Positions 3,254 through 30,847 of a stretch of 44,255 nucleotides of DNA are shown in pieces. The DNA comes from a virus (taxonomy: Duplodnaviria; Heunggongvirae; Uroviricota; Caudoviricetes), in the IMG/VR virus record IMGVR_UViG_2874920711_000009, positions 1 to 44,255 of that record; one strand, written 5' to 3'. Within the stretch, counting starts at the first letter, position 1. Each line of letters begins with the position of its first letter. The notes beneath the pieces are model-generated. The model searched no databases. It was not told the origin of the DNA and saw only the letters and a program-made list of their open reading frames with translations. A program made the position numbers and the translations under genes.

Positions 3254-3513
3254 GTAATCCGCCTCCTTTGGATTAATACGAGTTGATATTTGTTACAAAA
3301 CATTTTGATTTTATCAGATTTTTTTTATTGATAAGTGTCAATTGATTAGCTGGTATAGAGTGAGGCATATAGAAGGGCTGAGCTGCGTCAGTATGTGATG
3401 CAAAAATCCCACAGTTTCATGGAATTTTTGCATTTAGAGCTGTGAGATAGGGTGCCTTATCGACCTTACCCTGGCAACCGATTGACGGGGATTGCTCCCC
3501 CGTCGCGGTTTCC

Positions 3514-3654
3514 TTACTGCTTACACTGTAAGAACGCCGCAAACTCCGCTCCCCAGAAGCTCATCCGTATTTCACACAGCGAACCGTGTAGCATCCAGAT
3601 GATGAGGATTACCGTCACGCAGAACGTGATGGCCGTAAGCGATTTTTGCGACAT
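3514..3654 (-). CDS. Hok/Gef-family type I toxin-like peptide (46 aa)
   Basis: Hand translation MSQKSLTAITFCVTVILIIWMLHGSLCEIRMSFWGAEFAAFLQCKQ: N-terminal TM helix then LCEIR..x6..EFAAF, matching the Hok/Gef motif LCE[IV]R..EVAAF; not in the ORF track (under 60 aa). Confidence 0.5.
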   Translation of the reverse strand: MSQKSLTAITFCVTVILIIWMLHGSLCEIRMSFWGAEFAAFLQCKQ

Positions 3655-3845
3655 AGCGCTTGCTCCTTTGTTGGAGAGGCGCTAACCTATCACTTGCTTA
3701 AGGTAGATATGTTAGGGCCTCGGTTAAACAAAAATGTTTTCCGGGGCCTTTCCACATCTGGCCTTCGGGTATTCCCTCCGACCATCAGCCGAAAGGCACC
3801 CGCGCGTAATCTATCGCTTTTTTGTTACTCCGGCAATTCTGCCTG

Positions 3846-4106
3846 TTAATTCTGAGGTAAAGGCAAACTCATCTGATTGTTTCCCCTGTGTGAAGCTGGC
3901 AGTTCATGCCACGGGATACCTTCTGAAGAGTGAACGCCGGAGGCATGTTTCGATGTGAATTTATGGAAAGCTTCCAGTGTTGAGAAGCATACGCCGCATT
4001 CCAAGTTGTTACACTGGTAATACTTTTGCCGCACGGTGTTTGAATCATTTTCCGGACGACTGGTGCGGATACGGGCAGATGCGCCACAAAGCGGACAACG
4101 GAACAT
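3846..4106 (-). CDS. ogr: Ogr/Delta-family zinc-finger late-gene activator
   Basis: MFRCPLCG...YYQCNNLECG zinc-finger pattern; GGGAGG RBS; adjacent to gpD as in P2. Confidence 0.8.
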   Translation of the reverse strand: MFRCPLCGASARIRTSRPENDSNTVRQKYYQCNNLECGVCFSTLEAFHKFTSKHASGVHSSEGIPWHELPASHRGNNQMSLPLPQN

Positions 4107-4148
4107 AGCGACCTCCCTTAACGTGGTGCTGCCGCTATTCTAAGTTGC

Positions 4149-5258
4149 TCACTCTGTTTCCGCTATCCATTCCGGGATTTTTGCCTCAAGCTCAAGCTGC
4201 GTGGTAAAGCCGCTGTTATCAATGGTGTGCTCGACTTTCGCAATAATCCAGTCCTGATTATCAATCTCGCTTTTAAATCCTGTTACCGTGCCATGCATTT
4301 CGGGGTAGAGTTCTGCGCGTCCACGTGCCAGTGTGATGGAGAACGCTGCGGCTCCGCGTTGTAGCTGCTGCCACTTTGCCGCCGCTGCGCGTCTTGCTGC
4401 CTGCTCGTTCTGATAAGTCTTGCGTAACACAAACACATTGCCTTCCGCGCCTTCCATATAATCACCTTCACGGCTGCTGCTTTTCTCCTTTTTCGGTTTG
4501 GGTGGTTTGCGGCGTTTCACGCTGACTTTTTTCTTTTTCCCATAGTTAAGATCAAGCCAGTAGGCGCGCACCCCCGTATACGCCTCGCGGTCAGCAATGC
4601 GGAACTGATGGCGATCGCCGCTGCTGCGTGTGATGGCGAACGATGGCAACGGCTGGCCCTGTGCGTTCACGCCACCACCTGGCATGATGAATAACAGATT
4701 GCCGCTTTTTACCGTGGTGATTGCGCCCAGCATTTCCGCCATGCGCGTAAGGAAGGACATGTCGCTTTCTTCGGTCTGGTCGGCGTGGTCGATTTCGATC
4801 TCCATCAGCATTTCGCTGATTTGCGGTTTCAGACCGTACCGATGAGCGATGGCAGATACCACGCGCTCAACGGTCACATCATGCCAGGATACTTCATGTT
4901 TAACGTTAAATTCATCCCGAAAATCTGCGCTTCTGGCTGAAACAGTCAGCCTGTCCGGCGGTCATTCGTGAGCGATTTCATCAACAATGTAAGTGCCTTT
5001 TTCTGTCAGCGGTTCTCCTTTCCAGCCAATGAGAACCGTCAGGCGCGCGCCCCGTGGCGGTAGCTGCAACTGACCATCCGCATCATCCAGCGTGATGGTG
5101 AGCTGGTCCGCCTCAAATCCCCGGTTGTCGGTCAGTGACAGGCTCATCAGGCGCTCTGCCACGCCTGACAGCGCTTTACCCTCCGCGAGAATATCAAAAT
5201 CCGGCATTTTCACGGGGTCTGTGCCCTGACTGAGCAATTGCATGGTGGTGTCGGTCAT
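4149..5258 (-). pseudogene. D: tail protein gpD (late control D), frame broken between about 4880 and 4960 as given
   Basis: N-terminal fragment from ATG 5258 (GGGAGG RBS) ends at 4962; C-terminal 242-aa fragment 4149..4877 in another frame. Confidence 0.75.
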
Positions 5259-5414
5259 CTGTTCCCTCCCTGTGCGGCATGGTCGCATGTGCGTGCGGAG
5301 GGGGTTACTGCTTTTTGTTGTCGCCGTGGCGGGAGAACGGCGCAGGGGTGAGATTACGCGCGTGGTGGGTGATGATTGTTGCCGAATCATTTAACGGATA
5401 CAAGGGCTGAAGCT

Positions 5415-6599
5415 ATGAGTGAAACTCGTTTTCATGGTGCCCGTGTTACGGCAAATACCGACCTGGTAACAGCGATTAACGATGTTGATTCCAGCATTAT
5501 CGGTATCGTGGCAACGGCGGATGATGCGGACGCGAAGCTGTTCCCGCTGAACAAGCCCACACTGCTGACCCGCGTCAATGACGTGCTGGGAAAATGCGGG
5601 ACAACGGGGACGCTTTATCGTGCGCTTAAGGCCATCGCAGACCAGGTGAGCACAAAGGTGATCGTCGTTCGCGTGGCTGAACACAAAGAAGAAGACGGAA
5701 AGACGCAGGATCAACTGGTTATCGGTGGTTCTGAGGATGACGGCAGCTATACGGGGATGTATGCGCTGCTTGTTGCAGAGCAGGATGAAAGCATCGGATA
5801 CCGTCCGCGTATTCTGGCCGCGCCGGAGCTGGACACGGAGGCGGTAACAAAATCCCTGTGCGTGATTGCGGGTAAACTGCGCGCGTTTGTGTATGCCTCA
5901 TGTCACGGCTGTAACACGATGGCTGAGGCGATTACCTACCGCCAGAAATTCAACGAACGTGAGGTGATGCTTCTGTGGCCGGATTTTATCGCTTACAACC
6001 CGAAAAGTGGTAAAAACGAAACGTTCCCCGCGCCTGCTTATGCGTGCGGCCTTCGTGCGTATATTGACCATGAGCAGGGCTGGCACAAATCGCTGTCCAA
6101 TGTTCCGGTTAAAAATGTCCTGGGCATGTCAAAACATGTTTTCTGGTCGTTACAGGCCGAGGACAGTGACGCCAACAGCCTCAACAACAAGGAAATCACC
6201 ACCATCATTCGCCGCAACGGGTTCCGCTTCTGGGGCAACCGCACACCGGAAACGAACGCCTACATCTTTGAGGTGTATACCCGAACCGCACAGGTGCTGG
6301 CTGATTCAATTGCGGAAGCGCAGTTTGAAACCATCGACAGTCCACTGACACCTGCGAACGTGAAGGATGTTATCAGCGCCATCAGGGCAAAACTGGATTC
6401 GCTGGTTACTGCCGGGAAACTGATTGGTGCGGAGTGCTGGTATGACGTGGTGGATAACGGCACCACGGATTTACGTCAGGGACGTGTGCGTATTCGCTAC
6501 AAATATACGCCCGTTCCGCCACTGGAAGACATGGAGCTTTACCAGACGTTTACTGATGAATTCTTTGGTCCCGCATTTGCGGTGCTGGGAGGTGCCTGA
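5415..6599 (+). CDS. FI: contractile tail sheath protein gpFI
   Basis: Intact ORF; strong similarity to recalled P2 FI (FPLNKP..., AIADQ..., LRAF.Y.S..GC.T..E...YRQ.F..RE.M..WPDF, GWHK.LSNV, IRR.GFRFWGNRT, Y.YTPVPPLE). Confidence 0.9.
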   Translation: MSETRFHGARVTANTDLVTAINDVDSSIIGIVATADDADAKLFPLNKPTLLTRVNDVLGKCGTTGTLYRALKAIADQVSTKVIVVRVAEHKEEDGKTQDQLVIGGSEDDGSYTGMYALLVAEQDESIGYRPRILAAPELDTEAVTKSLCVIAGKLRAFVYASCHGCNTMAEAITYRQKFNEREVMLLWPDFIAYNPKSGKNETFPAPAYACGLRAYIDHEQGWHKSLSNVPVKNVLGMSKHVFWSLQAEDSDANSLNNKEITTIIRRNGFRFWGNRTPETNAYIFEVYTRTAQVLADSIAEAQFETIDSPLTPANVKDVISAIRAKLDSLVTAGKLIGAECWYDVVDNGTTDLRQGRVRIRYKYTPVPPLEDMELYQTFTDEFFGPAFAVLGGA

Positions 6600-7108
6600 T
6601 GGCTGTACCAAAACATCTTCGCTTTTTTACGTTGTTTGTGGATGGTGAAAACGAAGTGGGCAAAGTGACATCCGTCACGCCGCCCAAACTGACGCGCAAA
6701 ACCGACAGCTATCGTGGTGGTGGCATGATGGGGCGGTAAGTATTGATCTCGGTCTGGACGACTCCGCGCTTGATGCGAGTTTTGTCATGGGGGAGCTGTT
6801 CGTGCGCTGTTCCTTAAATATGGCGGCACGATTGACGGCACGCTGCTGCGTTTTGCGGGTGAATACTACACCGATGCAGAAAGCGATCTGTATGAAATCG
6901 AGATGCGCGGGCGTGTGACGGAAATTGATATGGGGAAGCCAAACAGGGCGAAGCCACATCACACACTTACGCTGTCAAAAACACCTACTACAAGCTGAGC
7001 GTTAACGATCGCCCGCTGTGGGAAATCGACCTGTTGAACCACATCTACCGGAAGGACGGCAAGGACATTGTGCCTGACCGTATCCGTTCCGCGCTTGGGC
7101 TTGGCTGA
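6600..7108 (+). pseudogene. FII: tail tube protein gpFII, several frame breaks as given
   Basis: Starts MAVPKHLRFFTLFVDGENEVGKVTSVTPPKLTRK (FII-like) then loses frame; no long ORF in 6600..7110. Confidence 0.65.
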
Positions 7109-7163
7109 TAAGTAATATGCAGGCGGCGCAGTGCGTCGCCTCTGACTGAAAAGGAGACAACTA

Positions 7164-7538
7164 ATGAAAGACATCGATACTGAAACCCGGAATAACACCG
7201 TGGCGGATGATGTGACGGCAGGTGAGGATATGGCTGTCGAACGTGGCGTAAAACTGACCCGACCAATTGAGCGTGGTGGCGAAAAAATCACGTATGTGGA
7301 GATCACCGGGGCTATTGAGCAGGGTGGATCCCTGCGTGGTCTGTCGCTGTCTGATGTGCTGAATCTGAAAGCGGATACCATGTTTACGCTGTTGCCTCGC
7401 GTGACCTCGCCACGACTGGATGAAGTGATGATTAAAAAAATGTCGTCACGCGATTTTATTCAGTTGTGCGCTGTGGCTGTAAATTTTATGAGCGAGCCAG
7501 ACTCTGGCGCGAAGAGCGTGCAGGAGACGGCAGCGTAA
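7164..7538 (+). CDS. E: tail assembly chaperone gpE
   Basis: 124-aa ORF after FII with RBS AAAGGAGA; position and size class as P2 E. Confidence 0.75.
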   Translation: MKDIDTETRNNTVADDVTAGEDMAVERGVKLTRPIERGGEKITYVEITGAIEQGGSLRGLSLSDVLNLKADTMFTLLPRVTSPRLDEVMIKKMSSRDFIQLCAVAVNFMSEPDSGAKSVQETAA

Positions 7539-7702
7539 TCACCCTGGTGTGCTTTGAGCACATCGAAGATCTGGTGGCGGATATTGCCGCCATTTTTAAC
7601 TGGTCGCCCGCCGAAATCTTCATGATGACGCCCGGCGAAGTGGTTAGCTGGCGCGAGCGGGCGGCACTTCGCAGCGGGAATGCAGATAATGAAGACTCTT
7701 GA
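7164..7702 (+). CDS. E': gpE+E' fusion via programmed -1 ribosomal frameshift near the A7 run 7434..7440
   Basis: -1 frame opens exactly at the A7 run (stop TAA 7433..7435 just before) and continues to 7702, overlapping the T start at 7680. Confidence 0.5.
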
Positions 7703-10492
7703 TATCCGGGTCGCTTTCAGCGCCGTTGACAGGCTGACCCGGCCTGCCGAAAACGCCCGCCGCCTGATGGGGCAGTTTGGTGACTCCATCCAGCGAACTC
7801 AGGGGCGATCAAAAATCTCGAGCGTCAGGCGCGTTCATTTGAGCGCGCCCGTGACGCTGTCAGTAAAGCGGATGCGGGCATCGTGAAAGCACGACGCCAG
7901 CTTAACGCCCTTAATCAGTTACAACGCACGGGTACAGTGCTCAGCGAAAAACAACAAAAGCTGATGCAGCAGTTAAGCACCCGGCTTGAACGCCTGAATG
8001 AATCGCGCACACGGGAAATTCAGAAAATGCGGGAGCTTGGCGGAGAGCTGAAACGCCACGGCATTTCCCTGACAGGCAGCGATAACACCATCCAGCAGGC
8101 CATCAGACGCACCGAACAGTACAACAACCAGCTTGAACGCGAACGGCAGGCGCTTGCGCGTGTAACGCGGGCGCGTGAGCGGTATTCGCGCGCGCAGGAA
8201 ACAGCGGGAAAACTGAAAACAGGTGGTGCGCTGGCAATTGGGGCGGCAGCGGCGGGCGGCTATGCTGCCGGGCGTTTTTTGCAGCCCGCGATCGGGTTCG
8301 GCAAAGAGATGTCCCGCGTTCAGGCACTGACGCGAATAGACAAAAACAGCCCGCAGTTTAAAGCGCTGCGTGAGCAGGCGTTAAAACTTGGCTCTGAAAC
8401 ACAGTTTACTGCGAGTGATGCCGCCAGTGGGCAGAGCTTTCTGGCAATGGCTGGTTTTACTCCGCAGACCATTCAGGCCGCATTGCCCGGTGTTCTTAAT
8501 ATGGCGCTGGCAGGTGGCGTCGAACTCGGCGAGACAGATGATATAGGCTCCAATATCCTCACACAGTTCAACCTGACAGCCGATCAAATGGACCGGGTCG
8601 GCGATACGCTGACAGCGGCATTCACCCGGACCAATACTGATTTACGCGCGCTGGGCGAAACCATGAAGTATACCGGTCCGGTTGCCGCAAAACTTGGTAT
8701 CAGTCTTGAAGAAGCGGCAGCCATGGCCGGGATGCTTGCCAATAATGGTCTTCGTGGAAGCGATGCTGGTACGGCCATGCGCGCAAGTCTGTCCCGCCTT
8801 GCATCACCGCCAAAAGCTGTGGCTGATGCGCTGAAAGAGCTTGGGGTGTCAGTTGCTGACGCCAGAGGCAAAATGCGCCCGATGGAGGATGTGCTGCTTG
8901 ATCTCTATAAGGCGACACAAAAATACGGACAGGTGGACCAGGTCTCCTTCTTCAAGGACATCGCCGGAGAAGAGGCGTTCGTTGGTTTGCAGACGCTTGT
9001 TGCGGCGGCTGGTTCAGGAGAGCTGCAAAAACTGACCAGAGAATTGCAGGGGCAAGGGGAGAGGCCGATCGCGTTGCAAAAGTAATGGCCGATAATCTTG
9101 ATGGGGACCTGAAAAATCTCGACAGCGCATGGGAAGGTCTTCGTATTCGCATCAGTGATCTGGTTGACGGTCCGCTGCGTTCTGTCACGCAGTGGCTCAC
9201 GCGGGTGCTTGAAAAAATCACCTCGCTGGCGCAGGCCCATCCGGTACTGACGCGCCAGCTACTGATAGCAGGCGGTGCGTTGCTGGCAATGACTGCAACG
9301 ATTGGCTCATTGTCGCTGGTTATTGGGGCGCTTTACGGGAAGCTGGCCACCCTGCGTCTTGGTTTTGACATTCTTACCCGGTCAATGAATGTCGTCAGGG
9401 TTTTGCCTGCGCTGTGGGGAATGGTGACGGGTTCCGTTTCTTTACTGGGAGGCGCTATCGGGGCGCTGTTCAGTCCGGTTGGTCTTATCGTAGCTGCGCT
9501 TGCCGGAGCTGCCGTTCTTATCTGGAAATACTGGGATCCCATCAGGGCATTTTTTGCCGGGGTGTTCAGCGGGATTATGGAAAGGCTGACCCCGTTGCGC
9601 GAAACCTTTGAACGGTTTGGTCCTGTTTTTGAAGCAATCGGAAGCGGGATCAGCCAGGTGTTTAACTGGTTTAAATCGCTGCTGTCACCGATGGAGTCCA
9701 GCAAGGAAACGCTGGATAAATGTACCAGTGCTGGCGAGATATTCGGTAACGTTCTTGGCGGTGCGTTACAACTTGTTCTGACACTTGCAAAAATGTTGCT
9801 GGATACGCTGGCGTGGATACTTGAAAAGCTCGGTGTGCTTCCGGATGAAGCGGAAAGGGCGCGCAAGAAAATCGAAGACGCACAGCGTGCGGCCATTCTT
9901 CAGGACAAGGTTGCCTTGCTTCAGGGGGACCTGGCGAAAATCAATCCGCCGAAGCCTGTGGAAAATGGCAATGGCACCGGAGGTGATAAGCCCAAAGACA
10001 ACAAACCGCTCACAGATAGCAATACCGGTACGCTACGCAGACTCAGCAAAATTGCTGATAACACAGGTAAGCTGGTTGATGAGACGAAAAAACGCATTGG
10101 CCCCGGCGATATTGTCTTTAAGAACCTGCCCGCGCACTTGCTGTTCGTGGGGAGTGGCAGGAGCGGAAGATTGCGCAGGTCAGTAAGCCTGCCCCCGCAA
10201 TTAATATCACCCCGTGGTTCCGGCTCCGCTGCCTCCTGCGCTGGTCCCTGTTATTGCGGCCAGCTCCCGCCCGGTGGCGGAGGCCATACGATCGCCAGTG
10301 GCATCAGTTCCTGCAACTTCCCGTAACCGGGAGCCTGTTGCCTCCGGATTTGGCGGTGAAATTCATGTTCATCTGCATAACGTTGTTACGCAGAATCCCC
10401 GCGAACTGGCGAAACTGGTCGGTGAAATGGTCAGGGCAGAAATGGAACGGCGCGCCCGTGCCTGGCGTGGCAGTTTTTACGATAAAGATTGA
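7680..10492 (+). pseudogene. T: tail tape-measure protein gpT, at least three frame breaks as given
   Basis: Fragments 7680..7886, 7883..9085, 9085..10326, 10214..10492; coiled-coil and Gly/Ala-rich TM-like stretches typical of tape-measure proteins; break near 9050 sits in G4 runs. Confidence 0.8.
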
Positions 10493-10498
10493 GGAGTC

Positions 10499-10993
10499 AT
10501 GGCCATGATGATGATCTACGGCATGTTTGTTTTTGAGCTGCGCACGTTGCCGCATCAGCAGTTACAGCAAAACAAAAGCTGGCGACATGTGAAAAATGAA
10601 CGCGTTAACCGTTCAGCAAGCTGGCAGTATATCGGTGCAGGTGATGATCGCATCGTTCTTTCTGGTGTTCTTTATCCTGAGATTACTGGTGGCGAAGTGT
10701 CGCTGTCGTTGTTGACCACGCAGGCATATACAGGACGTCCTTGGCCTTTGATTGATGGCGTCGGGCAGATTTACGGCATGTATGTCCTGACCGGAACGAA
10801 TACGACCCGCTCCGAGTTTGATCGCTACGGTAAGGCGAAAAAGATAGAATTTTCACTGACTCTTGAACGCTGTGATGAGGATTTGCGGGAGCGCCTGCAA
10901 TCCTCATCGTTCAGCGATATGCTGTCCGGCTTCAAAGATAAGGTGACATCATCCCTTAATAGCGCGGCCAGCTCAGTTAAGGGGCTGCTCTGA
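10499..10993 (+). CDS. U: tail protein gpU
   Basis: 164-aa ORF with GAGGAG RBS; MMMIYGMFVFELRT... resembles P2 gpU. Confidence 0.85.
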   Translation: MAMMMIYGMFVFELRTLPHQQLQQNKSWRHVKNERVNRSASWQYIGAGDDRIVLSGVLYPEITGGEVSLSLLTTQAYTGRPWPLIDGVGQIYGMYVLTGTNTTRSEFDRYGKAKKIEFSLTLERCDEDLRERLQSSSFSDMLSGFKDKVTSSLNSAASSVKGLL

Positions 10994-11149
10994 TTTAACG
11001 TATGTCGCCAATTTCCTGATGAAGGTGACTGGCGACTTGCTGTTGTATGTCCTTCTCAGAAAATTGTTTTTGAATAACAAATAACAGGATTTTATAATCT
11101 CTTAACCTTATAACATGTGTGGTCTGAAATAATAATTAAGGAGATTATC

Positions 11150-11722
11150 GTGCTATCTTACTTAATGGCAATTCACTTTGTTTTATTTGGAAACTCTACT
11201 AATTTAAAAAACTTCTGGAAACATGAAGTAATTCGGCGGAAACGTATGGATATCTGGAGGCTTTTAAGAGAGAAAAAGCAGCGTAACCGGAATTTCCTTT
11301 TCTGGTGGCGGTTGGCTAACGAAATGTATATTAATGGTAATAAATTACATAAGAAAGCAGCCAAAAAGTTAAACAGTAAAATAATTAACAAGTTTGGTTG
11401 TGAAATAGGATTGGGCGCAAATATTGGAAAAGGGTTGACAATTCCCCATCATGCTGGAATTGTTGTTCATTTTGCTGTTGATGCGGGTGAAAATCTGGTA
11501 TTACGACAGAATACTACCATTGGACAGATAGATGGTGATATGCCTGGTTCAAGAGTAAAAATTGGTAGTAACGTTGATATCGGAGCTAATTGTTGCATCA
11601 TTGGATTATCACGTAAAATTGGGGATAATGTAAAAATAGGTGCAATGTCTTTTATAAATAAAGATATACCATCAAATTGCACATATATAACTAAAAAGAG
11701 TGGTGTTGTATTGTATAAATAG
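11150..11722 (+). CDS. hexapeptide-repeat acetyltransferase (serine O-acetyltransferase / WcaB-like), low-GC cargo
   Basis: IGLGANIGKGLTIPHHAGIVVH...IG.N..IG hexapeptide repeats; AAGGAG RBS 7 nt before GTG 11150 (ORF track frame opens at 11117); AT-rich. Confidence 0.65.
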   Translation: MLSYLMAIHFVLFGNSTNLKNFWKHEVIRRKRMDIWRLLREKKQRNRNFLFWWRLANEMYINGNKLHKKAAKKLNSKIINKFGCEIGLGANIGKGLTIPHHAGIVVHFAVDAGENLVLRQNTTIGQIDGDMPGSRVKIGSNVDIGANCCIIGLSRKIGDNVKIGAMSFINKDIPSNCTYITKKSGVVLYK

Positions 11723-11729
11723 AGTACAT

Positions 11730-11769
11730 AAAGCCATCGATATTTTTGTCGATGGCTTTTTCTTTTTAT
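11730..11769 (+). terminator. rho-independent terminator
   Basis: 11-bp stem AAAGCCATCGA/TCGATGGCTTT with 8-nt loop followed by a T-run. Confidence 0.55.
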
Positions 11770-12343
11770 TGTGGGGCGACTGGCCACTCAACATCCGCTG
11801 CTACTGTTGTATCAACACGATTCAACAATACCCGATATGTCTTCCATGCAGCCAGTAACGATGCCTCTTCCTCCGTCGCAATATCCAAATCTACGGCATC
11901 CTGAAGTGGCGCAATATGCTCACTGGCTACCTGCATCAGGCTGTTTTTTGTTTCTTCTGCCTCCCGTACCCGAAACAGTTTTTCTGCTTCTGCATCTTTC
12001 GCCCAGGATGTGCCGTTCCACTTCTGACACTCTCCATCCGGCGACAACTAGGTAACATTTTCCGGTAACGGACCGAGTTCAGAAATAAATAACGCGTCCC
12101 CTGATGCCACGTCATAAACAGTTTTACCCCGATGATCTTCAACGAGATGCCACGATGCCTCATCACTGTTGAAAACAGCCACGAAGCCAGCCGGAATATC
12201 TGGCGGTGCAATATCGGTACTGTTTGCAGGCAGACCTGTATGAGGTGGAATGTATGCATCACCTTCCCCAATAAATTCATTAGTTCCGGCCAGCAGGTTA
12301 TAAATTTTTATGGCCGTGATTGTTCACTCATTCTGAAATCCAT
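11766..12343 (-). pseudogene. tfa: tail fibre assembly chaperone (Tfa family), inactivated
   Basis: Body ...[22 protein letters not shown]...[27 protein letters not shown] is Tfa-like; frame break after codon 11 at a T5/A5 run and an in-frame TAG (ENVT*LSPDG) near 12051. Confidence 0.7.
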
Positions 12344-12351
12344 GTTCACCT

Positions 12352-13254
12352 CTACTTAATATCAGAGACAGAATATTGTTTATTGAGCGTATGGGTGGGA
12401 GTACCAATAACGATGCTACTTCCGTGGCTATGTGCGCCAGAGGTGACATTACCTACGGGATTTTCTGGATTAATCCGGTGTATATGCGAACCAGGGCGAA
12501 AACGGTTATTAGCCTGATGTTGTATCAGTACATCATCAGCCTGATGTTCAGGGTTAATACAGACTTGCCCGGAACGTGAGCAACACGTCCGATAATCGCC
12601 GCATCCAATATATTTAGTATCCGCATAACGGCAAACAGAATTACCCGGACAGTATGCATATGTGCCAAATACTGCCGACTGGCGAGATTGTGCGTATTCC
12701 CAGTTAATTGATTCTGTTTTTTTATTAAAGTTATCCCATGCCTGCTTCATCTGTCGTGCAACACTTTCAAACGGCACCTGACCACATCCGGCCCCCATTG
12801 CAGGGAATACCACTGTTTTTATTTTCATGTCTGTCGTTGCGTTTTTATTGTGCTGAAAGATGGCAAGCAGAGCGGCCCAGGTTGCGTTATATACAGCGTC
12901 TGTTCCGTCAATTGTCAACGGAACACGCATTGTTGGCGCATGTACCAGCCAGGGGTGATGATTATGCCCCGTTTCAATGACAAATGCAGAACCTACAGGC
13001 TGTTCGCCGAGATATTCACGAAGAATATGATTCTGAACGCGGGACTGTAACTGAGTACCGAAGAATGCGGTAATGGCGGCATCAACGCCACCATCCATCA
13101 GGCCGAAACTATTTGCCGCACTTACCATGCAGTCAAATTGTCTGATTGTTTCAAATGGCTTTCCGACAATATTCACACTATCTGCATTTGCAAATATCCG
13201 TTTAAATGCTTCAGCCATTTCTGTTACTGGTGCAGAAAGAATGAGCGTAATCAT
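12352..13254 (-). CDS. macro-domain protein with C-terminal Cys/His-rich extension
   Basis: Macro-domain motifs [62 protein letters not shown]; start ATG 13254..13252 overlaps the H stop TGA 13253..13251. Confidence 0.7.
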
Positions 13255-15397
13255 GCAAGCCTCACAATATAGTTAAATGCGATGTTTTTTACGGTGTTTT
13301 CTGCGTTACCCGTAGCGTTAACGGTGATGGTATGCCCGTGTGAACCTATCGCAACGGAGTGTGTGTGTGCACCAATTCCTACCGTATGAGTGTGTGCGCC
13401 AATATTTACTGTGTGAGAGTGCCCCCTGCGTTACTTGTTTTTCCAGTGCCAAGCCCTGAGTTATAACCAGCCGAAACACCATTACCAGCACCAGTGTTAC
13501 CAACAGGAATATTGTGTGAATGATCCCCGGCGCTATTCGTGGTTTTAGTGCCATGGTTAAATGAACTGGACGTCTTGGTACCGTAATCAAACGACGATGT
13601 GGTTTTCGTCCCCAAATCCGTACTGGATGCACTGGCGCTGTGGGTGTGCGATTTAATGCCGTCCTGTTCCTGAGACAATACTGCACGACCACTGGCGGGC
13701 TTGCCCTTAATCGTCCAGCTACGCATATCAGGGATCACGCCTGACGGATAAGCGGCTGCAAGTTTCGGGTATGCAGATTTGTCAAAAGTCTGCCCCTGCA
13801 TCAGGGCATAACCAGACGGAACGGTATCTGATGGCCAAGGGATCGGTGCGCCAACCGGATAAAGTTCATGAGGCGAAATATACAGCGAATAAACAGAACC
13901 GTCCGTTAATCCTTCCGGCTTATTAGCAGAATATGCTGGTGAAGTATGAATCGTTACGCTGGCGTTACTGGTATAATCCCACTGAATATTAACACCTGTG
14001 GCGTAATTACCTATTTCAACATAAACATCATAGGTATCACCGGATGTATTCACCCATGCAAAATTAGTAAATCCAACCGATGTCCGTCGCCATAACGCAC
14101 CAGTAAGACCTTTTGGATTTCCATTTCCCGCACGAAGAACAAGTTCAGATATACCTGCCTGTTGAGGTGACTCTACGTTAAATCCCGCGCCACCAATCAA
14201 CGTAATTGAAACAACAGAACTCGCCTGCGGCATGGTTACCGTTGCTAATTTGAACCAACCAGCACCACCGCTGAATGACATAGTTGTTGAGTTAAGCGTA
14301 CCAATATCTTTCGGCGTCAGTGTAATATCCGCTGAAAGCGCCTTACCATTCACCTTACGGGCAGAAGGTACCCGACCATTCGCATTGTCATTAGCTGCTT
14401 TCACTGCTTTCGGTGTCGCGGCAAGCGTTTCAGATGTGCTGTTAGTCGCGCTGCTTAGCTGGACAATCCCTTTTTGTGCTGTCGTAGCGTCCTGAGCGGT
14501 ATATTTCCCGTTAGCAAGGTCATATGCTGTCTTTACCGCTTTCGGTGTTGCGGCCGGTGCTTCAGACGTGCTGTTGGTGGCGCTACTGAGCTGGACAAGG
14601 CCTTTCCGCGCTGTGGTGGCATCCTGCGCAGTATATTTCCCGTTAGCAAGGTCATATGCTGCCTTTACCGCCATTGGTGTTGCCGCCAGCGTTTCAGAAT
14701 CGCTGTTGGTGGCGCTACTGAGCTGGACAAGGCCTTTTCGCGCTGTGGTGGCATCCTGCGCAGTATATTTCCCGTTAGCAAGATCATACGCGGCCTTTAC
14801 TGCTTTCGGCGTTGCAGCCTGCGTTTCAGACACGCTGTTAGTGTCGCTACTGAGTTGAACAAAGCCTTTTGCGGTCAGCGAGGCGTCCGGGTGACGTCGT
14901 GACTGTTCATGTTCTTTCAGTTTGTCATTCACGTAATCCACTGTGGCCATAACCATGGTGTTATCCACGGTAAGCGCCACGGTGGCAGTGCTGGATACGG
15001 TCAGAATGGTGCGAAATGTTTGTGCACGTCCGGATCCTTCGGCAACGGTTGGTTTGTAACTTTCGGCAGTATTGCCCACCGCGATCAAATCGCCGTGCTC
15101 ATCAAATACACCAATTTCCCGGATCCAGAATCCGCCCGTTTCAGGAGGAATAACCAGCTCCGCAATAATGCGGTTCTGATGTGTTGCGTCCAGGATGACG
15201 CGATTAACAGTATGTCGCCACACCTCATGCACCAGACGGGTCTGCTTACTGTCTGGTGTGGGCAACGTGCCGCCACCGTCGCCCACGGCCATATGAGTCA
15301 GGCGGACAGGATTACCATCTGGCGCGGCAGCCTGAGCTAATTTTTTGGCACCAGTATCAGTGATAATGGTTTTAAATTTTCGTGTTGTGGTACTCAT
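13251..15397 (-). pseudogene. H: tail fibre protein gpH, frame break at a C5/G5 run near 13422..13426
   Basis: 663-aa ORF 13406..15397 plus out-of-frame C-terminus [57 protein letters not shown]; one extra G would restore the frame. Confidence 0.85.
14410..14890. repeat. four tandem copies of a ~114-bp coding repeat inside H
   Basis: Repeated 38-aa unit KG[FLI][36 protein letters not shown] visible in protein and DNA. Confidence 0.7.
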
Positions 15398-15399
15398 GC

Positions 15400-15930
15400 T
15401 TAATCGTCCGGATAAATGGTAATGACTTCACCGTCGTAAGTTGCTGCCGCCGCGAAAATATCCCCCGGGATCTCCTGAATGATATTCAGCCCTGTCATGT
15501 GGCGGCTGACCGGGCGGGCATCAGCAATCAACCGCTCCATTTCCAGATACATTTCCTCCGTCACGCCACTGTCCAGCGTGCCGACTTCAACGGTAAATGT
15601 TCCCGGTTCTCCGCCGAACTCCCACCACTCAGACACGCGAATGAGGTATCCCAGCGGCTCAATGGCCCTGCGCAGTGCGCTGATGGTCCCTTTGTGTCGG
15701 TGTATCAGCCATGCATCACGAATCACCTGTCGCTTTGTCTCTTCCGGCCAGTTGCGATCCCAGCGGTCAACGGAAAACGCCCAGGCGAGATAAGGCAGCA
15801 GGTGCACCGGGCAGGTGTCCGGCGACCACAGCGTGTTGAGGTCTACCGGAATGTCTGTAATGCGTGTTCCGACTGCTTCGGCACAACGCATGAAACTGCT
15901 GGCTGATGGCGGTAACAGTGAATTACTCAT
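15400..15930 (-). CDS. I: baseplate assembly protein gpI
   Basis: ORF track 15400..15963; likely start is ATG 15930, which overlaps the gpJ stop (ATGAGTAA). Confidence 0.8.
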
Positions 15931-16742
15931 TGCGCCCACCTTCGCTGATGGTAAATGACTCACAGCGCGCCGCCTGTATGTCGCTGATGGCCATATTCTG
16001 TGTGGGTTCGATTATCTCCACGCGTTGCACGCCGTGCACATGCAGTGCGGCAGCAATGGCGGACAACGCCACGTCCTGACCGATAAGCCCCTGTTCAGCC
16101 AGCCACTTCCTGAATGACGATTCTGGCGCTCTGTACCGTCAGGCGGTCGGCCACCGGGCGGGTATCCTCTGCATTCAGAACGGCGCGAACGGTATTAAGC
16201 AACGCCTCCGTTGCTGTGCCGTCGCCTTCAGTGGACAGGATGGAAACCGTCACACAGGCCGGAGACGGACTGATAGCCCGCGCATCGCGCACCAGACCGC
16301 TGGCGCTGCGGGCAAAATACTCGTATGCACCTGACGGGCCAGCAACACTCAGGCCGTCGTACGCCCGCTGCGCCCGCAGTCTCAGCGAGGTGTCGCTCTC
16401 CATCACCGCGTCGGTGGTATCCGTTGCCGGAGTGATAACCAGGCGCTTTGTGTTCATATTGCCCGCGAGGTTGTCCAGGTTTGTCCCTGAACCGTGGCTT
16501 AACATACAGGCGCGTGCGCCCTCATTGACCCGCTGGCGTAACAGCATTTCACGAAACGACATGGTTTGAGCGATAACGTTAAGGGGTTCCGATTCCAGCT
16601 CCAGCGCGGCGGAAACGGCTTCACGCTGTTCGGCGGGATAGGACGCAATCATCATGGCCTTTGTGTCAGCCAGAATTGCTTCAAAGTCAGGCTCCGCGAT
16701 GATGGCGGGTTCCGGTAACTGGGAAAGGTCAACGGCGGGCAT
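15923..16742 (-). pseudogene. J: baseplate protein gpJ, frame break near 16095
   Basis: 215-aa fragment 16095..16742; remaining C-terminus (...LIGQDVALSAIAAALHVHGVQRVEIIEP...) continues in another frame to 15923. Confidence 0.8.
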
Positions 16743-16745
16743 GAT

Positions 16746-17095
16746 TTACTCCCTCAGCGTGATGGTTAACTCAACATTCTGCATGGTCTGCATGACAGTG
16801 CCCGACAGCGTCACCCCGGCGCGGCCTCCGCTTTCCAGACAACGTCGATGGCATCCAGGGCAATGCGGGGTTCCCATCGTGTCAGCGCAATCACGGCAGC
16901 ACTCATGCATTGCAGACGCGTGGTGTTATTCATGGGTTCGTCAATCAAATCAGGCACAAGGCTGCCATATTCCCGTCGCATAACCCGGCTTGCCAGCGGG
17001 GTGGTCAGGATGTCCCTGACTGACTGTTTCAGGTGCTCCATATCGTTCAGGTTTCCCGTTCCGTCCGGGTTCATTCCTGTGTAGCGGGTTGTCAC
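16746..17095 (-). pseudogene. W: baseplate wedge protein gpW (gp25-like), frame break near 16811
   Basis: 94-aa ORF 16811..17095; C-terminus continues in +1 frame to the TAA just before the J start; break at a CCGGGG run. Confidence 0.7.
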
Positions 17096-17673
17096 TGCGG
17101 GCCTCCTGTCGAATCGCTGCCGCCTTTAACGCCACCGTGTTTATGCGTATGCACTGTGATGCCGTTTGAGGTGAAATCGCCGCCGCTGTGCGTGATATTG
17201 CCGCTCATCTTTCCCCCTTTTGTGACGTCAAGCGTCGCTGTTCTCAGAAGGTCTGTGCATTCCACGACGGGCGTATCCAGTGTCACGCTGACGGATGCCT
17301 GCAGGGTGGCCGTTTTCATGCCGCTGGCGCTCAGTGCGCCTGCGTCCGCGTCGTAGCGGAACACCGCGCCATCCGGCGCGCTGACCACGATTTCTTTCAG
17401 GCTTTTTCCGGGGGCCGGATTGGCATCACTCCACAGGCTGCCAATTATCATGGCGGTTTCCGGGTTGCCGCCGATGCAGGCAATTACCACCTGTTCGCCT
17501 GGTGATGGCGGCAGCCACACATTGAAGGCTCCCGCGCGCGTGGTGTTCCAGCGCAACCAGCCTGTTTCCAGTTCGCCGCTGCGAACGCGAACGCGCCAGG
17601 ATTCCTCATCAACTTCAGAGATGATCCCGGTGCGGATGATGTTGCTCAGTAGCCGCATGAGTTCTGCGCTCAC
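17092..17673 (-). CDS. V: baseplate spike/hub protein gpV
   Basis: 193-aa ORF; position between S and W; P2 V-like sequence character. Confidence 0.85.
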   Translation of the reverse strand: MSAELMRLLSNIIRTGIISEVDEESWRVRVRSGELETGWLRWNTTRAGAFNVWLPPSPGEQVVIACIGGNPETAMIIGSLWSDANPAPGKSLKEIVVSAPDGAVFRYDADAGALSASGMKTATLQASVSVTLDTPVVECTDLLRTATLDVTKGGKMSGNITHSGGDFTSNGITVHTHKHGGVKGGSDSTGGPQ

Positions 17674-18314
17674 CGTACAGCCTCCGCAATCCGGCCCAGC
17701 ACCGTGTTATAAATCAGGCGTTCATCTGCCTGACTGATGCCCAGCAGCTCACGTACCGGGTAATCGGTGAAAATGCCCGGCGCAACCTGATCGCGCTCAC
17801 CGAACTGATGAACGCGTGCAATACGTGCAGCCACGCCGCTGTAACCCACCGTCACACCGGAAGCATCCGCACGGGCTTTCAGGTAGCGGGTGGTGCGCAG
17901 TTTTACGAACATGGGGACGCGCTTTGTGCTGTCCTGGTTGATGCGCCGGGTGCGTATTTCCAGAAAACGGTCGATGTCATCCCGGTAAAACGTGCGGATA
18001 TTGTTTTTATCCTCATCCCACCCGGTAATGGTTCGCCCGTATTTCCCCGTGTCGTGATGCCAGTTTTTCAGCGTGCGTGATTCGTTATTCCAGATAAAGC
18101 GAATGCGTTCCTGTATCCGGGTTACGCGGCGTCTGCGTGGTGTCCACGCGGTCCCGTCCGGCGCTTTCTGTGACCGGATACGCGCCTGCTGGGCGCGGCG
18201 TAAATCCTGTGCCAGCTTTCTGGCGATGTTATTGATGGCCTGCTGATTCAGGCTGTCGCGGATGGCCTCAAAGGTTTCATCCACGCGGGTGAATGCCTTA
18301 TCCATCGCTTTCAC
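17670..18314 (-). CDS. S: tail completion protein gpS
   Basis: 214-aa ORF overlapping V start and R stop as in P2 operon. Confidence 0.8.
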   Translation of the reverse strand: MKAMDKAFTRVDETFEAIRDSLNQQAINNIARKLAQDLRRAQQARIRSQKAPDGTAWTPRRRRVTRIQERIRFIWNNESRTLKNWHHDTGKYGRTITGWDEDKNNIRTFYRDDIDRFLEIRTRRINQDSTKRVPMFVKLRTTRYLKARADASGVTVGYSGVAARIARVHQFGERDQVAPGIFTDYPVRELLGISQADERLIYNTVLGRIAEAVR

Positions 18315-18765
18315 CCCACGTCACATCCTGGAATACATGCGACCAGTCGCCTTCGGAAGATGGCAGGCGGGGTTTTGGCTCCGGCAGGTGTTCTGCCTGC
18401 GGTGTGCCCTGATTGCTGCGCGTGATGCGAACGCGTTCCCGCAGGGGGAGCGTAAACAGGAGATCGGCGCTGTCATCGTCATTGATAACGGCGGAGAATT
18501 TGATGTCCTGATTACGCTCAGGGTTGAGCAACAACTGTGGCTGATTTTCGGATAACCACGCCAGCAGCGGCAGCGTGAGGTCATCCAGCTCCCCGGCGTA
18601 ATCCATGACAAACATCACCATCTGATAGCGGTAAACAAACGATGGGGTTTCTCCTGTCGTTTCAATGTTACCGCTCTCCACGAAAATGGTGAATTTTTCC
18701 GGGTTGGCCTGACACCATCGGCATGAACGGGTCATGGCTTCACGCAGGGAATCAGTTTTCAGCAT
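18298..18765 (-). CDS. R: tail completion protein gpR
   Basis: 155-aa ORF upstream of S, P2 order. Confidence 0.8.
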   Translation of the reverse strand: MLKTDSLREAMTRSCRWCQANPEKFTIFVESGNIETTGETPSFVYRYQMVMFVMDYAGELDDLTLPLLAWLSENQPQLLLNPERNQDIKFSAVINDDDSADLLFTLPLRERVRITRSNQGTPQAEHLPEPKPRLPSSEGDWSHVFQDVTWGESDG

Positions 18766-19042
18766 GGTTGTTGTCCTCGTTGTTCAGTCGTTGCAGCCTG
18801 CGCTGTTCCAGTAATTCAATGGCCCGTTTATCCGTGTTACAGGTTTCCAGTGCATCCAGAAGGCGGTCGCCCCATATACCGAGATTTCCCCATGTGGGAG
18901 TGTCAGGGAAGGGGGGAGGCGTTACCGGTATGGTCAGCGTCTGCGGTATAAGCCGGACTGACGGCGCTGGCCGTGGCGCGTTCTGCGTGCCTGCGCAACC
19001 TGTCAGTAAAACGAGCGTCAGGCAAAGCGTGGGCGCATTCAT
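18752..19042 (-). CDS. lysC: o-spanin lipoprotein (LysC/Rz1-like)
   Basis: MNAPTLCLTLVLLTGCAG lipobox, Pro-rich; embedded in and extending past the LysB region in another frame. Confidence 0.6.
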   Translation of the reverse strand: MNAPTLCLTLVLLTGCAGTQNAPRPAPSVRLIPQTLTIPVTPPPFPDTPTWGNLGIWGDRLLDALETCNTDKRAIELLEQRRLQRLNNEDNNHAEN

Positions 19043-19309
19043 CTTTTGCAATATCGTTGCGTAGCTGTTCACGTCTGGCCTCTCCGTCCTGATTTCGTTG
19101 TTGATTTTCCACGCGGAGTTGCGCCAGCACCTGCTGCATATCCTGTACCCGGTGCTGATGATATTCAGGGTGTCGACGGTGCTTTTCAGTGCGCTGGCCT
19201 GCGCTTCGTTTCTGGCGTTCTCCCGGCCCAGCGACCACGACAGACGCATGGATGTTCCCCATGCGGCAATCAGAAGGAAAGCGACGCCCAGCGTGGGCCA
19301 GAGCTTCAT
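18903..19309 (-). pseudogene. lysB: i-spanin (LysB/Rz-like), frame break as given
   Basis: N-terminal TM segment MKLWPTLGVAFLLIAAWG in one frame; coiled-coil remainder (QHRVQDMQQVLAQLRVENQQRNQ...) in ORF 18903..19262. Confidence 0.5.
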
Positions 19310-19698
19310 GCCGGATAGGCTCCGTGTGGTAACTGAAAATGCGGTCCGTCTTTCAGGGTCTTCCAGTCGCCGCCCCATTCCACCGGAATATTCAGTTCCC
19401 GGCTGGCCTGTCTGAATGCTGCTGCGATTTTTTCGTACAGCGGCCATTCCCATGACACCTGGCTACCGATATAAGCCACAACATCCACGGCATGCCCCGT
19501 AAGGTGGCGGCTGTTCATGGTCTGGCTCTTACCCGTGGCCACAAGTTGCTTCTGGCGGTAACGGCTGCGCAACCCTTCGGTGATACCAAAATCCACTTCC
19601 GAGATTTCCAGTGCCCGTCGGGTCACTTTCACCAGATCAGGATTTACGCCCTGCAAATTCTTTTCGCTCCGGCTGCTGAATTTAAATGTGTTGCTCAT
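19306..19698 (-). CDS. endolysin, peptidase M15-type (Zn-dependent peptidoglycan peptidase)
   Basis: HLTGHAVD ... WGGDW ... DGPHFQL motifs typical of M15 endolysins. Confidence 0.8.
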   Translation of the reverse strand: MSNTFKFSSRSEKNLQGVNPDLVKVTRRALEISEVDFGITEGLRSRYRQKQLVATGKSQTMNSRHLTGHAVDVVAYIGSQVSWEWPLYEKIAAAFRQASRELNIPVEWGGDWKTLKDGPHFQLPHGAYPA

Positions 19699-19711
19699 TC
19701 GTCCTTCTCCT

Positions 19712-20017: not shown

Positions 20018-20038
20018 TGCTACTCCCCCACAACTGAA

Positions 20039-20721: not shown

Positions 20722-20813
20722 TCCTGAAAAAATCGGGCGGTGGGTGCGCGGTGTAAACGGTCACGGAGTCAAACCGGAACACCGCGCACGCCGCCCGCTG
20801 ACGGGGTCAGTCG

Positions 20814-21614: not shown

Positions 21615-21659
21615 TTTTTCTCTCCGTTACAGGCGGGCATGATGCCCGCCGTGAGTTGA

Positions 21660-22711: not shown

Positions 22712-22734
22712 AAAAAATTTGCTCCTTTGTCTTA

Positions 22735-30781: not shown

Positions 30782-30847
30782 AACTGTTTGACCCTCTCAC
30801 TCCGGAACTGTTACGGGCGCTAATCCGCGAAATGAAAGGGGTATCCG

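Follow-up and report, generated by a model that had tools for sequence, protein, structure and literature searches.

An inverted FI–U tail block as the lineage-wide gene order of P88-type P2-like prophages, and a candidate bidirectional late promoter between D and FI

Gene content and orientation

The window, that is, the whole 44,255-nucleotide stretch analysed here, contains the P2-type tail genes FI, FII, E/E′, T, U and D together with a gene for an Ogr-type activator, all identified by tblastn with the proteins of phage P88 (74-99% identity) and by Pfam. Judged by its sequence, the window carries a P88-like (Xuanwuvirus-type) prophage of the P2 family. Its leftward unit of D and ogr begins with D (4149-5258, minus strand, ATG at 5258), which encodes the tail/baseplate hub protein gpD (Pfam Phage_GPD) and is 97.6% identical to P88 D over 366 amino acids (tblastn). 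Codon 99 of D (4962-4964) is an in-frame stop, at a position where the relatives have an invariant glycine in the alignment (G99). Downstream of D by 42 nt, and on the same strand, lies ogr (3846-4106), whose 86-residue product is an Ogr/Delta-type zinc-finger late activator (Pfam PF04606, Ogr_Delta; 52.4 bits against a cutoff of 26.3, E = 5e-14). Its cysteines are spaced C4-X2-C7-X24-C32-X4-C37, i.e., CX2C-X24-CX4C, compared with CX2CX22CX4C in P2 Ogr (PMC3931495). In the collinear E. coli locus, the annotation of this gene is likewise ogr/Delta-like.

Sequence inspection confirmed that D diverges from FI across a 156-bp spacer (5259-5414), which holds the D Shine-Dalgarno sequence GGGAGGG (the reverse complement of about 5263-5269). 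On the far side of this spacer, the rightward block opens with FI (5415-6599, plus strand, ATG at 5415), an intact gene of 394 codons for the tail sheath (Pfam Phage_sheath_1, Gp18_domIII_N and sheath_1C; 98.2% identity to P88 FI by tblastn). It is followed on the plus strand by FII (6599-7108), the tail tube gene; by E (7164-7538) and the E′ extension (7547-7702), tail assembly chaperones matched by tblastn to P88 gp47 and gp46 (E and E′); by T (7689-10492), the tape measure gene; and by U (10499-10993), an intact tail protein gene (Pfam Phage_P2_GpU, E = 1.5e-38; 99.4% identity to P88 U by tblastn) with which the block ends. The frames of FII and T are broken, the tblastn match to FII being split over three frames and that to T falling into five pieces. 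Compared with E. coli CP148331, FII has three 1-nt deletions, at about 6734, 6794 and 6936, each of which turns G5 or G6 into G4 or G5, and T has four, at about 7806, 9053, 10132 and 10211. All of these deletions fall in G/C runs, and the frameshifts in both genes are, on the sequence, probably sequencing errors. Elsewhere, the prophage carries several IS insertions and a truncated A gene.

The junction between U and the tail-fibre genes is filled by a cargo gene of low GC content (37%) on the plus strand (11117-11722, probably starting at the GTG at 11150), in the place where P88 has a DNA invertase and a tail-fibre shufflon. This gene resembles hexapeptide/serine acetyltransferases: it has a weak Pfam Hexapep match and is called serine acetyltransferase in collinear E. 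coli loci. A promoter scan assigned it a sigma-70-like promoter of its own (11070-11098), and a terminator scan found a hairpin (11730-11759) common to it and the convergent tail-fibre assembly gene. The latter gene, a macro-domain gene (12352-13254, Pfam Macro) and the tail-fibre gene H occupy 11766-15397 on the minus strand (tblastn, Pfam and E. coli annotation). H, which reaches 15397, closes the leftward V-W-J-I-H-G unit and converges on U. From 13406 to 23569, the minus strand carries H, I, J, W, V, S, R, the lysis genes, L, M, N and O.

These assignments, from tblastn with P88 proteins and from Pfam, bear out the original prediction that D, ogr, H, the baseplate genes and the head genes read on the minus strand and FI to U (5415-10993) on the plus strand. 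As far as the head genes are concerned, it holds for O, L, M and N, but not for P and Q, which read on the plus strand and diverge from O, as they do in P2. The orientation of FI to U stands throughout, with FII and T being placed on the plus strand by homology only, as their reading frames are not intact.

Gene order in related phages and bacterial genomes

The canonical order was correctly given as lying on one strand: in L-413C, H and G, and then FI, FII, E, T, U, D and ogr, all have the same orientation. The P_F operon of P2 and L-413C, FI FII E E′ T U D (ogr), consists of genes homologous to those of the window in the same internal order, also with an Ogr-type gene downstream of D (PMC3931495), and the encoded proteins are 31-49% identical to those of the window. 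In P2, however, D closes the FI operon on the strand of H and G, and the start of D overlaps the end of U, whereas in the window D is detached from U, has a ribosome-binding site of its own and faces away from FI. Thus, the predicted inversion of about 5.7 kb is real in the sense that FI to U is inverted relative to P2 and L-413C and D no longer follows U; its collinear relatives show that it is not an event in this genome.

The closest of these relatives are P88 (Xuanwuvirus P88), phiSM, P884B11, 500465-2 and 520873, in which gene content, gene order and strand agree with the window over two stretches, ogr and D through FI-U, and H to Q. This group is 91-95% identical to the window in DNA sequence over 3800-10999 and has the same 156-bp spacer between D and FI. 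Across the left junction, one-strand collinear matches were found to 11 phage records (91-95% identity), P88 and phiSM among them, and P884B11 and 500465-2 are further collinear complete phage genomes. P88 and the Citrobacter phage phiSM are functional temperate phages (PMC5285337; PMC6456863). Collinearity with the Xuanwuvirus references thus extends over the left junction and the whole block, but the right junction is unlike that of P88 itself, in that cargo replaces the invertase: the window lacks the invertase and shufflon between U and H, and has acetyltransferase-like and macro-domain genes instead, like many E. coli prophages. The window also differs from P88 in its IS insertions, its truncated A gene, the stop codon in D and its many single-base frameshifts, as well as in its integrase (44% identical) and immunity region.

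The same arrangement was observed in bacterial genomes. A place in which at least 80% of window positions 3300-13300 is covered on a single strand, both junctions included and in the orientation of the window, occurs in 307 complete E. coli genomes. We also surveyed 52 D-centred loci from GTDB species representatives, 50 of which contain FI and are therefore informative. All but one of these (49/50) have the order V W J I H (+) / U T E FII FI (-) / D ogr (+). They are spread over about 20 genera of Enterobacterales, which include Salmonella, Serratia, Klebsiella, Pantoea, Erwinia, Pectobacterium, Brenneria, Edwardsiella and Xenorhabdus. Among phages, the inverted order is common to members of three ICTV genera, namely Xuanwuvirus, Senquatrovirus and Reginaelenavirus: SEN5 (Senquatrovirus; D 62-64% identical) and Klebsiella phage Kp4871-3 (Reginaelenavirus; D 70% identical) have the same block divergent from D, although they belong to other genera, infect other hosts and have proteins that are only 28-70% identical to those of P88. 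The canonical order is kept where the identity of D is 52% or less, as in P2/L-413C, Elveevirus, Gegavirus, Cartapus and the Orbus prophage L053. Throughout the branch, that is, in the window, P88, phiSM, SEN5, Kp4871-3 and 49 genomic loci, D and FI are separated by a divergent spacer of about 125-160 bp.

The inverted FI-U block is therefore the usual gene order, fixed long ago, in a large branch of P2-like phages, comprising P88, SEN5 and relatives in Klebsiella and Serratia. Because the order is invariant across this clade, plaque-forming phages included, it is not a recent rearrangement, a switchable segment or an assembly artefact. The rearrangement originally proposed is thus replaced by what the synteny comparison found, namely an arrangement that is the norm of the lineage. 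The orientation of the tail block is not mentioned in the papers on P88, phiSM, SEN4/5 and Serratia PP4, and a keyword search of the literature for inverted tail genes in P2-like phages returned nothing relevant to the arrangement or its promoter.

Several other explanations of the block were weighed against this conclusion. An inversion of about 5.7 kb private to this genome would fit the orientation of the block relative to P2/L-413C, in a prophage with other real damage (the IS elements, the truncated A gene and the D stop codon). Both junctions, however, have the same layout in, and 91-98% sequence identity to, many independent phage and E. coli genomes, and the spacer is conserved and structured across about 20 genera. 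Inverted repeats or IS copies were sought at the block ends and none were found; the repeat search agrees with the original observation that no inverted repeats bracket the block. We consider a private inversion to have a negligible probability, and the same is true of an assembly misjoin that placed an FI-U contig in the wrong orientation. The misjoin had been offered as the alternative, and the sequence does seem to be of modest quality, with many 1-nt deletions in G/C homopolymers; but the order recurs in finished genomes and in isolated phages, and the junction sequences 5259-5414 and 10994-11150 both align without a break to E. coli CP148331.

It is also highly improbable that the block is a phase-variable segment flipped by a Gin/Cin/Hin-type invertase. 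The likeness to the invertible tail-fibre segments of that kind lies in an inverted segment of tail genes with, in several members of the clade, an invertase alongside: a DNA invertase gene adjoins U in P88, phiSM and several loci, and Cartapus, which has the canonical order, carries one immediately upstream of FI. Unlike those segments, the block has no crossover sites or inverted repeats at its ends, and the window contains neither an invertase (no tblastn match to that of P88) nor a crossover core resembling AAACC-NN-GGTTT (gix/cix/hix). In P88, the only two gix-like cores (23833 and 26904) flank the tail-fibre segment rather than the FI/D or U/invertase junctions, and a single orientation was seen in 49/49 inverted loci and in all phage records of the clade. 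Somewhat less improbable, but still doubtful, is that recombination with another phage, whether illegitimate or homologous, replaced the FI-U module or reinserted it the other way round. In favour of this are the mosaic nature of P2-like phages, the hot spot for cargo at the U/tail-fibre junction (invertase and shufflon in P88, the acetyltransferase gene in the window), and the 76% identity between the invertases of P88 and Cartapus, as against about 50% for structural proteins. Yet P88 FI, FII and U have diverged from their counterparts in canonical phages as much as D, J and I have (all about 42-59% identical), which argues that the block shares the history of its flanks. In addition, the distance from P_F to FI has been kept, and a single inversion accounts for everything in one event.

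The spacer between D and FI

The late promoters of P2 contain the dyad TGT-N12-ACA (PMC3931495). In the window, the candidate equivalent in the D/FI spacer is GTTGT-N12-AGAAC (5317-5338), which is centred between 5327 and 5328. It has the form TGT-N12-AGA and so agrees with the consensus at 5/6 positions; the dyad of relatives is GTTGT-N12-ACAAC or GTTGT-N12-AGACC, and in many of them the homologous place holds TGT-N12-ACA without a mismatch. A perfect TGT-N12-ACA is absent from the spacer of the window, and the eight matches in the whole window, none of them in a late intergenic region, are at chance level. The distance from the dyad to the FI ATG is 87.5 nt in the window, about 82 nt in relatives and 81.5 nt for P_F of L-413C; in this respect the branch resembles P2. 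In P2-type Ogr/Delta-dependent promoters, the dyad is centred about 55 nt upstream of the start of transcription, a -35 element is missing, and transcription requires Ogr as well as the alpha subunit of RNA polymerase. A generic sigma-70 scan likewise found no -35/-10 promoter in the D/FI spacer, as is expected of activator-dependent promoters. The promoter search proposed for the region upstream of D therefore came out negative for a sigma-70 pair, and instead revealed a P2-type dyad with mirrored -10-like hexamers.

On the FI side, the hexamer GATGAT (5371-5376, plus strand; consensus GA.tAT) starts 43 nt from the dyad centre and belongs to the predicted P_F. The predicted start of the FI transcript is near 5383, inside a conserved CGAA(C/T)TCA, which would put the dyad at about -55. 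On the D side, the predicted P_D (5279-5287, minus strand) consists of TG (5287-5286), one nucleotide and the hexamer GACCAT (5284-5279), which again starts 43 nt from the dyad centre. The consensus here is C.CgCGcgC.TG.aA.caT, in which a conserved GC-rich block precedes the hexamer. Transcription of D is predicted to start near 5272, so that the leader would be short, at about 13 nt, and would include the D Shine-Dalgarno sequence. A small ORF annotated in P88 as gp50 (5305-5412 in the window, minus strand) overlaps this region; its counterpart in SEN5 is on the other strand, and, from this comparison, it is probably not a gene.

This geometry is conserved. Among 49 distinct spacers, NANNNT occurs at offset 43 in 82% on the FI side and 78% on the D side, and in at most 16% at every other offset. 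An alignment of 41 distinct spacers likewise shows conserved blocks; as these sequences are related by descent, part of the conservation is inheritance, but the surrounding columns vary freely. By hand, the same arrangement of dyad and hexamer was found in Xenorhabdus and SEN5, and also in L-413C at the dyad that precedes V, the position of P_V in P2. The O/P spacer of the window (151 bp, dyad at 23639-23660) has the same layout too, within 1 nt on the O side. The extended dyad pattern has three exact matches in the window and was built from two of them, which makes its enrichment there partly circular. The remaining match, at 9751-9772 within T, lacks hexamers at the right offsets and was dismissed as chance. 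Upstream of R or V in the window, we found no convincing late-promoter dyad; the sole candidate has one mismatch (19217-19238) and lies about 460 nt upstream of R.

The layout has a counterpart at P_P and P_O of the P2 family, where a spacer of about 150 bp likewise separates divergent late genes and contains a central dyad of the TGT-N12-ACA type; in P2, the status of P_P and P_O as late promoters is established, whereas P_D of the window is a predicted one. For the Stenotrophomonas phage Smp131, a single dyad was assigned by its authors to both P_P′ and P_O′ (PMC3931495). We infer from the sequence that the elements described here act as promoters, that Ogr binds the dyad and that transcription begins at the predicted sites. 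The spacer would then be a bidirectional late promoter, in which one Ogr-type dyad at about -55 serves two mirror-image core promoters, GATGAT for FI-U and TG-n-GACCAT (5287-5279) for D-ogr.

Rather than from a shared site, D might be transcribed from an independent promoter, either constitutive or located within the FI coding sequence, or the conserved block on the D side might be an operator or an RNA element, with the gene order still being the lineage norm. The start sites and Ogr dependence of the shared-dyad model are predictions from sequence, one half-site of the dyad in the window is imperfect, and the D-side hexamers (GACCAT, AATCAT, GATCCT) match TATAAT weakly. The CGCGCGC block ahead of the D-side hexamer, moreover, has no counterpart that we know of in the described P2 promoters. 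What speaks against such a separate origin of D transcription is the exact mirror symmetry, with the offset of 43 on both sides and a TG at the extended -10 position on the D side; the conservation of this mirror layout from Escherichia to Xenorhabdus while neighbouring positions vary; and its presence, within 1 nt, in the O/P spacer of the same phage. We regard an independent origin of D transcription as unlikely, though clearly less so than any of the alternatives for the gene order, and conclude that the late promoters of FI-U and D-ogr, which diverge from each other, are probably both driven from one activator site.

Origin and significance of the arrangement

The order FI-FII-E/E′-T-U, with its P_F, opposite to D-ogr and to V-W-J-I-H-G was fixed in a common ancestor. 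The most economical origin would be a single inversion, with breakpoints just upstream of P_F and at the boundary between U and D. If an inversion occurred, it would have occurred once, in a deep ancestor of this branch of the Peduoviridae; that it arose in situ is likewise something we infer from sequence comparison. Such an event would have moved P_F beside D, and, because the activator site is a dyad, late expression of D could then have come from the other face of the same site. D would separately have gained a strong ribosome-binding site of its own, in place of the translational coupling to U seen in P2. An Ogr-dependent promoter for D-ogr would, furthermore, preserve the positive feedback on ogr that is provided in P2 by read-through from P_F. 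We are confident in the overall account, i.e., a P88-like prophage with an ancestrally fixed inverted FI-U order and a 156-bp spacer that would act as a bidirectional Ogr-type late promoter. With more reserve, we lean towards the specific proposal that a single Ogr-binding dyad, midway between mirror promoters, activates both units, and that its symmetry allowed the ancestral inversion, which detached the essential gene D, to persist and reach fixation in a whole branch of P2-like phages.

The inverted tail block is thus the normal map of P88-type prophages, and these prophages are very common, being present in hundreds of complete E. coli genomes and across the Enterobacterales. Its recurrence elsewhere is no reason to report a rearrangement or an assembly error. 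It represents an incremental variation on a well-understood system: a deep branch of the Peduoviridae manages with D outside the FI-U operon. A way of doing so is suggested by the conserved spacer, namely one activator site for two divergent late promoters, which would refine the model of late transcription in P2. If the shared-dyad reading is true, the D/FI spacer would clearly illustrate how, in nature, a shared promoter can rescue a rearrangement that breaks an operon.

Orientation of the tail block in the window and in its relatives

A P2-family prophage makes up nearly all of the window. Positions 3800-10999 share 91-95% DNA identity with Escherichia phage P88, Xuanwuvirus P884B11, Escherichia phage 500465-2 and Citrobacter phage phiSM, and prophages of complete E. 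coli chromosomes are up to 97.7% identical to the window. A gene map was created by tblastn with all P88 proteins, together with Pfam. The minus strand encodes a hok-like toxin (3514-3654), ogr (3846-4106) and D (4149-5258). These are followed on the plus strand by the tail block, i.e., FI (5415-6599), FII (6599-7108), E/E' (7164-7702), T (7689-10492) and U (10499-10993), and by an acetyltransferase-like cargo gene (11117-11722). The genes for tail-fibre assembly, a macro-domain protein, H, I, J, W, V, S, R, lysis, X, L, M, N and O occupy 11766-23569 on the minus strand, and P and Q lie at 23721-26510 on the plus strand. Beyond 26510 are early genes, mostly on the minus strand, and then a different immunity and integrase region at the end (40065-44255), unlike that of P88 (C-like 32%, int 44% identical). 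The flk flank (1-995) matches the E. coli strain used for comparison at only ~94% identity.

The original prediction placed FI-U on the strand opposite to D and ogr, and explained this by a ~5.7-kb inversion in this genome or, alternatively, by an assembly misjoin. The layout is correct, because the ATG codons of D and FI are at 5258 and 5415, with the D ribosome-binding site seen in the 156-bp spacer between them (5259-5414). Both explanations fail, since the order is exactly that in the maps of P88 and phiSM, temperate phages that yield infectious particles (PMC5285337; PMC6456863), and is shared far beyond them. Eleven phage records match window 3800-12500, and 307 complete E. coli genomes match window 3300-13300, each in a single same-strand place with at least 80% coverage; the latter query spans both junctions, so that an oppositely oriented block could reach only ~57% one-strand coverage. 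The annotation of the closest E. coli relative, CP148331, likewise reads ogr and D (minus), then sheath, tube, E, E', T, U and acetyltransferase (plus), then tfa, macro, H, I, J, W and V (minus).

In the canonical P2 order, H G ... FI FII E E' T U D ogr, all genes are on one strand and the start of D overlaps the end of U, as in L-413C, Cartapus/Elveevirus and a Gegavirus. To assess how far the inverted order extends, D homologues were aligned, D-centred loci were taken from one genome per species, and P88-type genes were located in each. The order V W J I H (plus) ... U T E FII FI (minus) D (plus) ogr (plus) was found in 49 of the 50 FI-containing loci; that is, it is the norm of the lineage. 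These loci, whose D is 62-99% identical to that of P88, come from Salmonella, Trabulsiella, Symbiopectobacterium, Edwardsiella, Serratia, Kluyvera, Erwinia, Enterobacter, Pantoea, Mixta, Kosakonia, Citrobacter, Pectobacterium, Brenneria, Izhakiella, Klebsiella, Raoultella, Yokenella and Xenorhabdus. The sole exception, an Orbus prophage with a D 48-49% identical, is canonical. Among deposited phages, SEN5 (Senquatrovirus; D 62-64%) and Klebsiella phage Kp4871-3 (Reginaelenavirus; D 70%) are inverted, and the canonical order is found in Elveevirus, Gegavirus and Peduovirus (D 49-52%). The genome scan relied on peptide patterns that are particular to this D clade, so that the survey gives uniformity inside the clade and not how common the order is in P2-like phages at large. 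Of the 526 records in the phage collection that have a D homologue, 48 belong to the identity bands above 60%. We conclude that the orientation of FI-U is genuine and usual in this lineage. The inverted order is already displayed in ICTV-classified reference genomes; the literature searched on such phages passes over the orientation of the tail block without comment.

As for the origin of the arrangement, FI, FII and U of P88 have diverged from their canonical counterparts to the same degree as D, J and I (all 42-59% identical), and the block therefore has a history as deep as that of its flanks. The simplest origin is a single ancestral inversion, with breakpoints just upstream of the late promoter P_F and at the U/D boundary. 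A switchable element is ruled out: the orientation is one and the same in all clade members examined, no inverted repeats were found bracketing the FI-U block, as originally predicted, and the window contains neither an invertase gene detectable by tblastn nor a gix-like site. P88 has only two gix-like cores, and both flank its tail-fibre segment.

Cargo genes and damage to the prophage

Beyond U, the window departs from P88. In P88 and phiSM, U is followed by a DNA invertase gene and a tail-fibre segment that can invert, whereas the window, like many prophages of E. coli, has at this point the low-GC (37%) hexapeptide/serine acetyltransferase-like cargo gene (11117-11722, plus), with its own sigma-70-like promoter at 11070-11098. 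A strong hairpin terminator (11730-11759) separates it from the convergent tfa. The U/tail-fibre junction is a cargo site, and has no bearing on a recent inversion. The same gene adjoins tail-fibre assembly genes in the unrelated large E. coli phages JL22 and Ro157c2YLVW, and so may be an O-antigen-modifying moron. Between H and the tail-fibre assembly gene lies the macro-domain gene (12352-13254, minus; 300 aa), an unusual site for an ADP-ribose-binding or -hydrolysing domain; many such prophages of E. coli have the gene there too.

In the regions compared with the closest E. coli relative, the window differs by 14 single-base indels. Each is a base missing from the window, and 12 of them shorten a run of at least three G or C (e.g., G5 to G4). 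Such deletions, at 6734, 6794, 6936, 7806, 9053, 10132, 10211, 12314, 13422, 16830 and 19148, interrupt FII at three places, T at four, and W; tblastn also shows frame changes in lysB, Y, X, N, O, P, Q and ParM. That the deletions are one-directional and bound to homopolymers points to probable sequencing error, with homopolymers under-called in the assembly, and not to decay and real pseudogenes.

Other damage looks real. Codon 99 of D (4962-4964, minus) is an in-frame stop in place of a Gly invariant in 14 aligned homologues; as this is a substitution and not a homopolymer error, D may be truly inactivated. J lacks ~77 bp that are present in P88 and E. coli relatives (16117-16129), and the 13-base overlap of the alignment pieces at the joint suggests a deletion between short repeats. 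The prophage is also ridden with insertion sequences. An IS630-family element (~996-2148, minus; DDE_3 transposase of 343 aa, ORF 1016-2047) splits a VasI/TagO-like cargo gene that is uninterrupted in phiSM and E. coli relatives. Two IS66-family copies lie in inverted orientation, at 30036-32804 (plus; its transposase itself split into several ORFs) and 40539-43131 (minus), and an IS3-family element at 38174-39447 (minus). The first IS66 copy abuts replication gene A, of which the last ~180 codons are gone (residues 1-762 at 35090-32805). With or without real frameshifts, the prophage is probably defective.

The D/FI spacer and late transcription

The late promoters of P2 lack a -35 box, and their upstream element has its centre near -55. 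P2 has four late promoters dependent on the zinc-finger activator Ogr, with the element TGT-N12-ACA (PMC3931495). A motif search found no perfect copy in the D/FI spacer, but GTTGT-N12-AGAAC is present there at 5317-5338. When 41 distinct spacers are aligned, this dyad is the best-conserved element, mostly as GTTGT-N12-ACAAC or AGACC, and it lies ~82 nt from the FI ATG, as compared with 81.5 nt for the P_F dyad of L-413C. Given this equal distance, P_F appears to have travelled along with the inverted block.

Next, 49 distinct spacers were anchored on the dyad centre and offsets 30-59 were scored for NANNNT. A hexamer starting at offset 43 is found in 82% of the spacers on the FI strand and in 78% on the D strand, and in at most 16% at every other offset; several of the misses are anchoring errors. 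Inspection by hand showed CAACAT and AATCAT at offset 43 in Xenorhabdus, whose TGT-N12-ACA is perfect, and AATGAT and GACGAT at that offset in SEN5. The D-strand consensus, ACAAC-AAaaa ... C.CgCGcgC.TG.aA.caT, is an extended -10 (TG-n-hexamer); that of the FI strand is ...gCGtGa...gggGA.tATcac..cgaAcTCA. In L-413C the dyad upstream of V, at the site of P_V in P2, has CATCCT at the same offset. In the window, the predicted -10 of FI is GATGAT (5371-5376, plus), with a start at ~5383, and that of D is TG (5287-5286) plus GACCAT (5284-5279, minus), with a start at ~5272, ~13 nt before the D ATG, so that the leader would carry the Shine-Dalgarno sequence GGGAGGG.

This mirror symmetry puts a single dyad at ~-55 for both directions. 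Judging from the sequence, the best explanation is that one Ogr site would drive both FI-U and D-ogr, allowing D to be expressed without its operon. Because the gene for an Ogr-type zinc finger (C-X2-C-X24-C-X4-C) follows D at a distance of 42 nt, D-ogr transcription from the predicted promoter would be self-reinforcing. Small "hypothetical protein" ORFs annotated across the spacer (window 5305-5412, minus; P88 gp50; SEN5_27) are probably artefacts; they overlap conserved promoter elements, and their strands differ between P88 and SEN5.

The same extended dyad recurs at 23639-23660, in the middle of the divergent O/P spacer (23570-23720, 151 bp), which is laid out alike, with -10-like hexamers ~43-44 nt either side of a central GTTGT-N12-AGAAC. 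In P2, O and P are transcribed from two divergent late promoters, P_O and P_P, and the layout suggests that one dyad may serve both in this phage group. The window has three exact matches to the extended motif against 0.24 expected, an enrichment that is partly circular because two sites of the window itself gave the motif; the third match lies inside T and appears fortuitous. No convincing dyad was found upstream of R/S/V (18766-19300), where S and V overlap in this lineage and the only gap is upstream of R; the nearest similar site, with one mismatch, is ~460 nt upstream, within the lysis genes (19217-19238). The bidirectional late promoter that we infer around a shared dyad is the only new element of this analysis, and would constitute a small, testable refinement of the P2 model.
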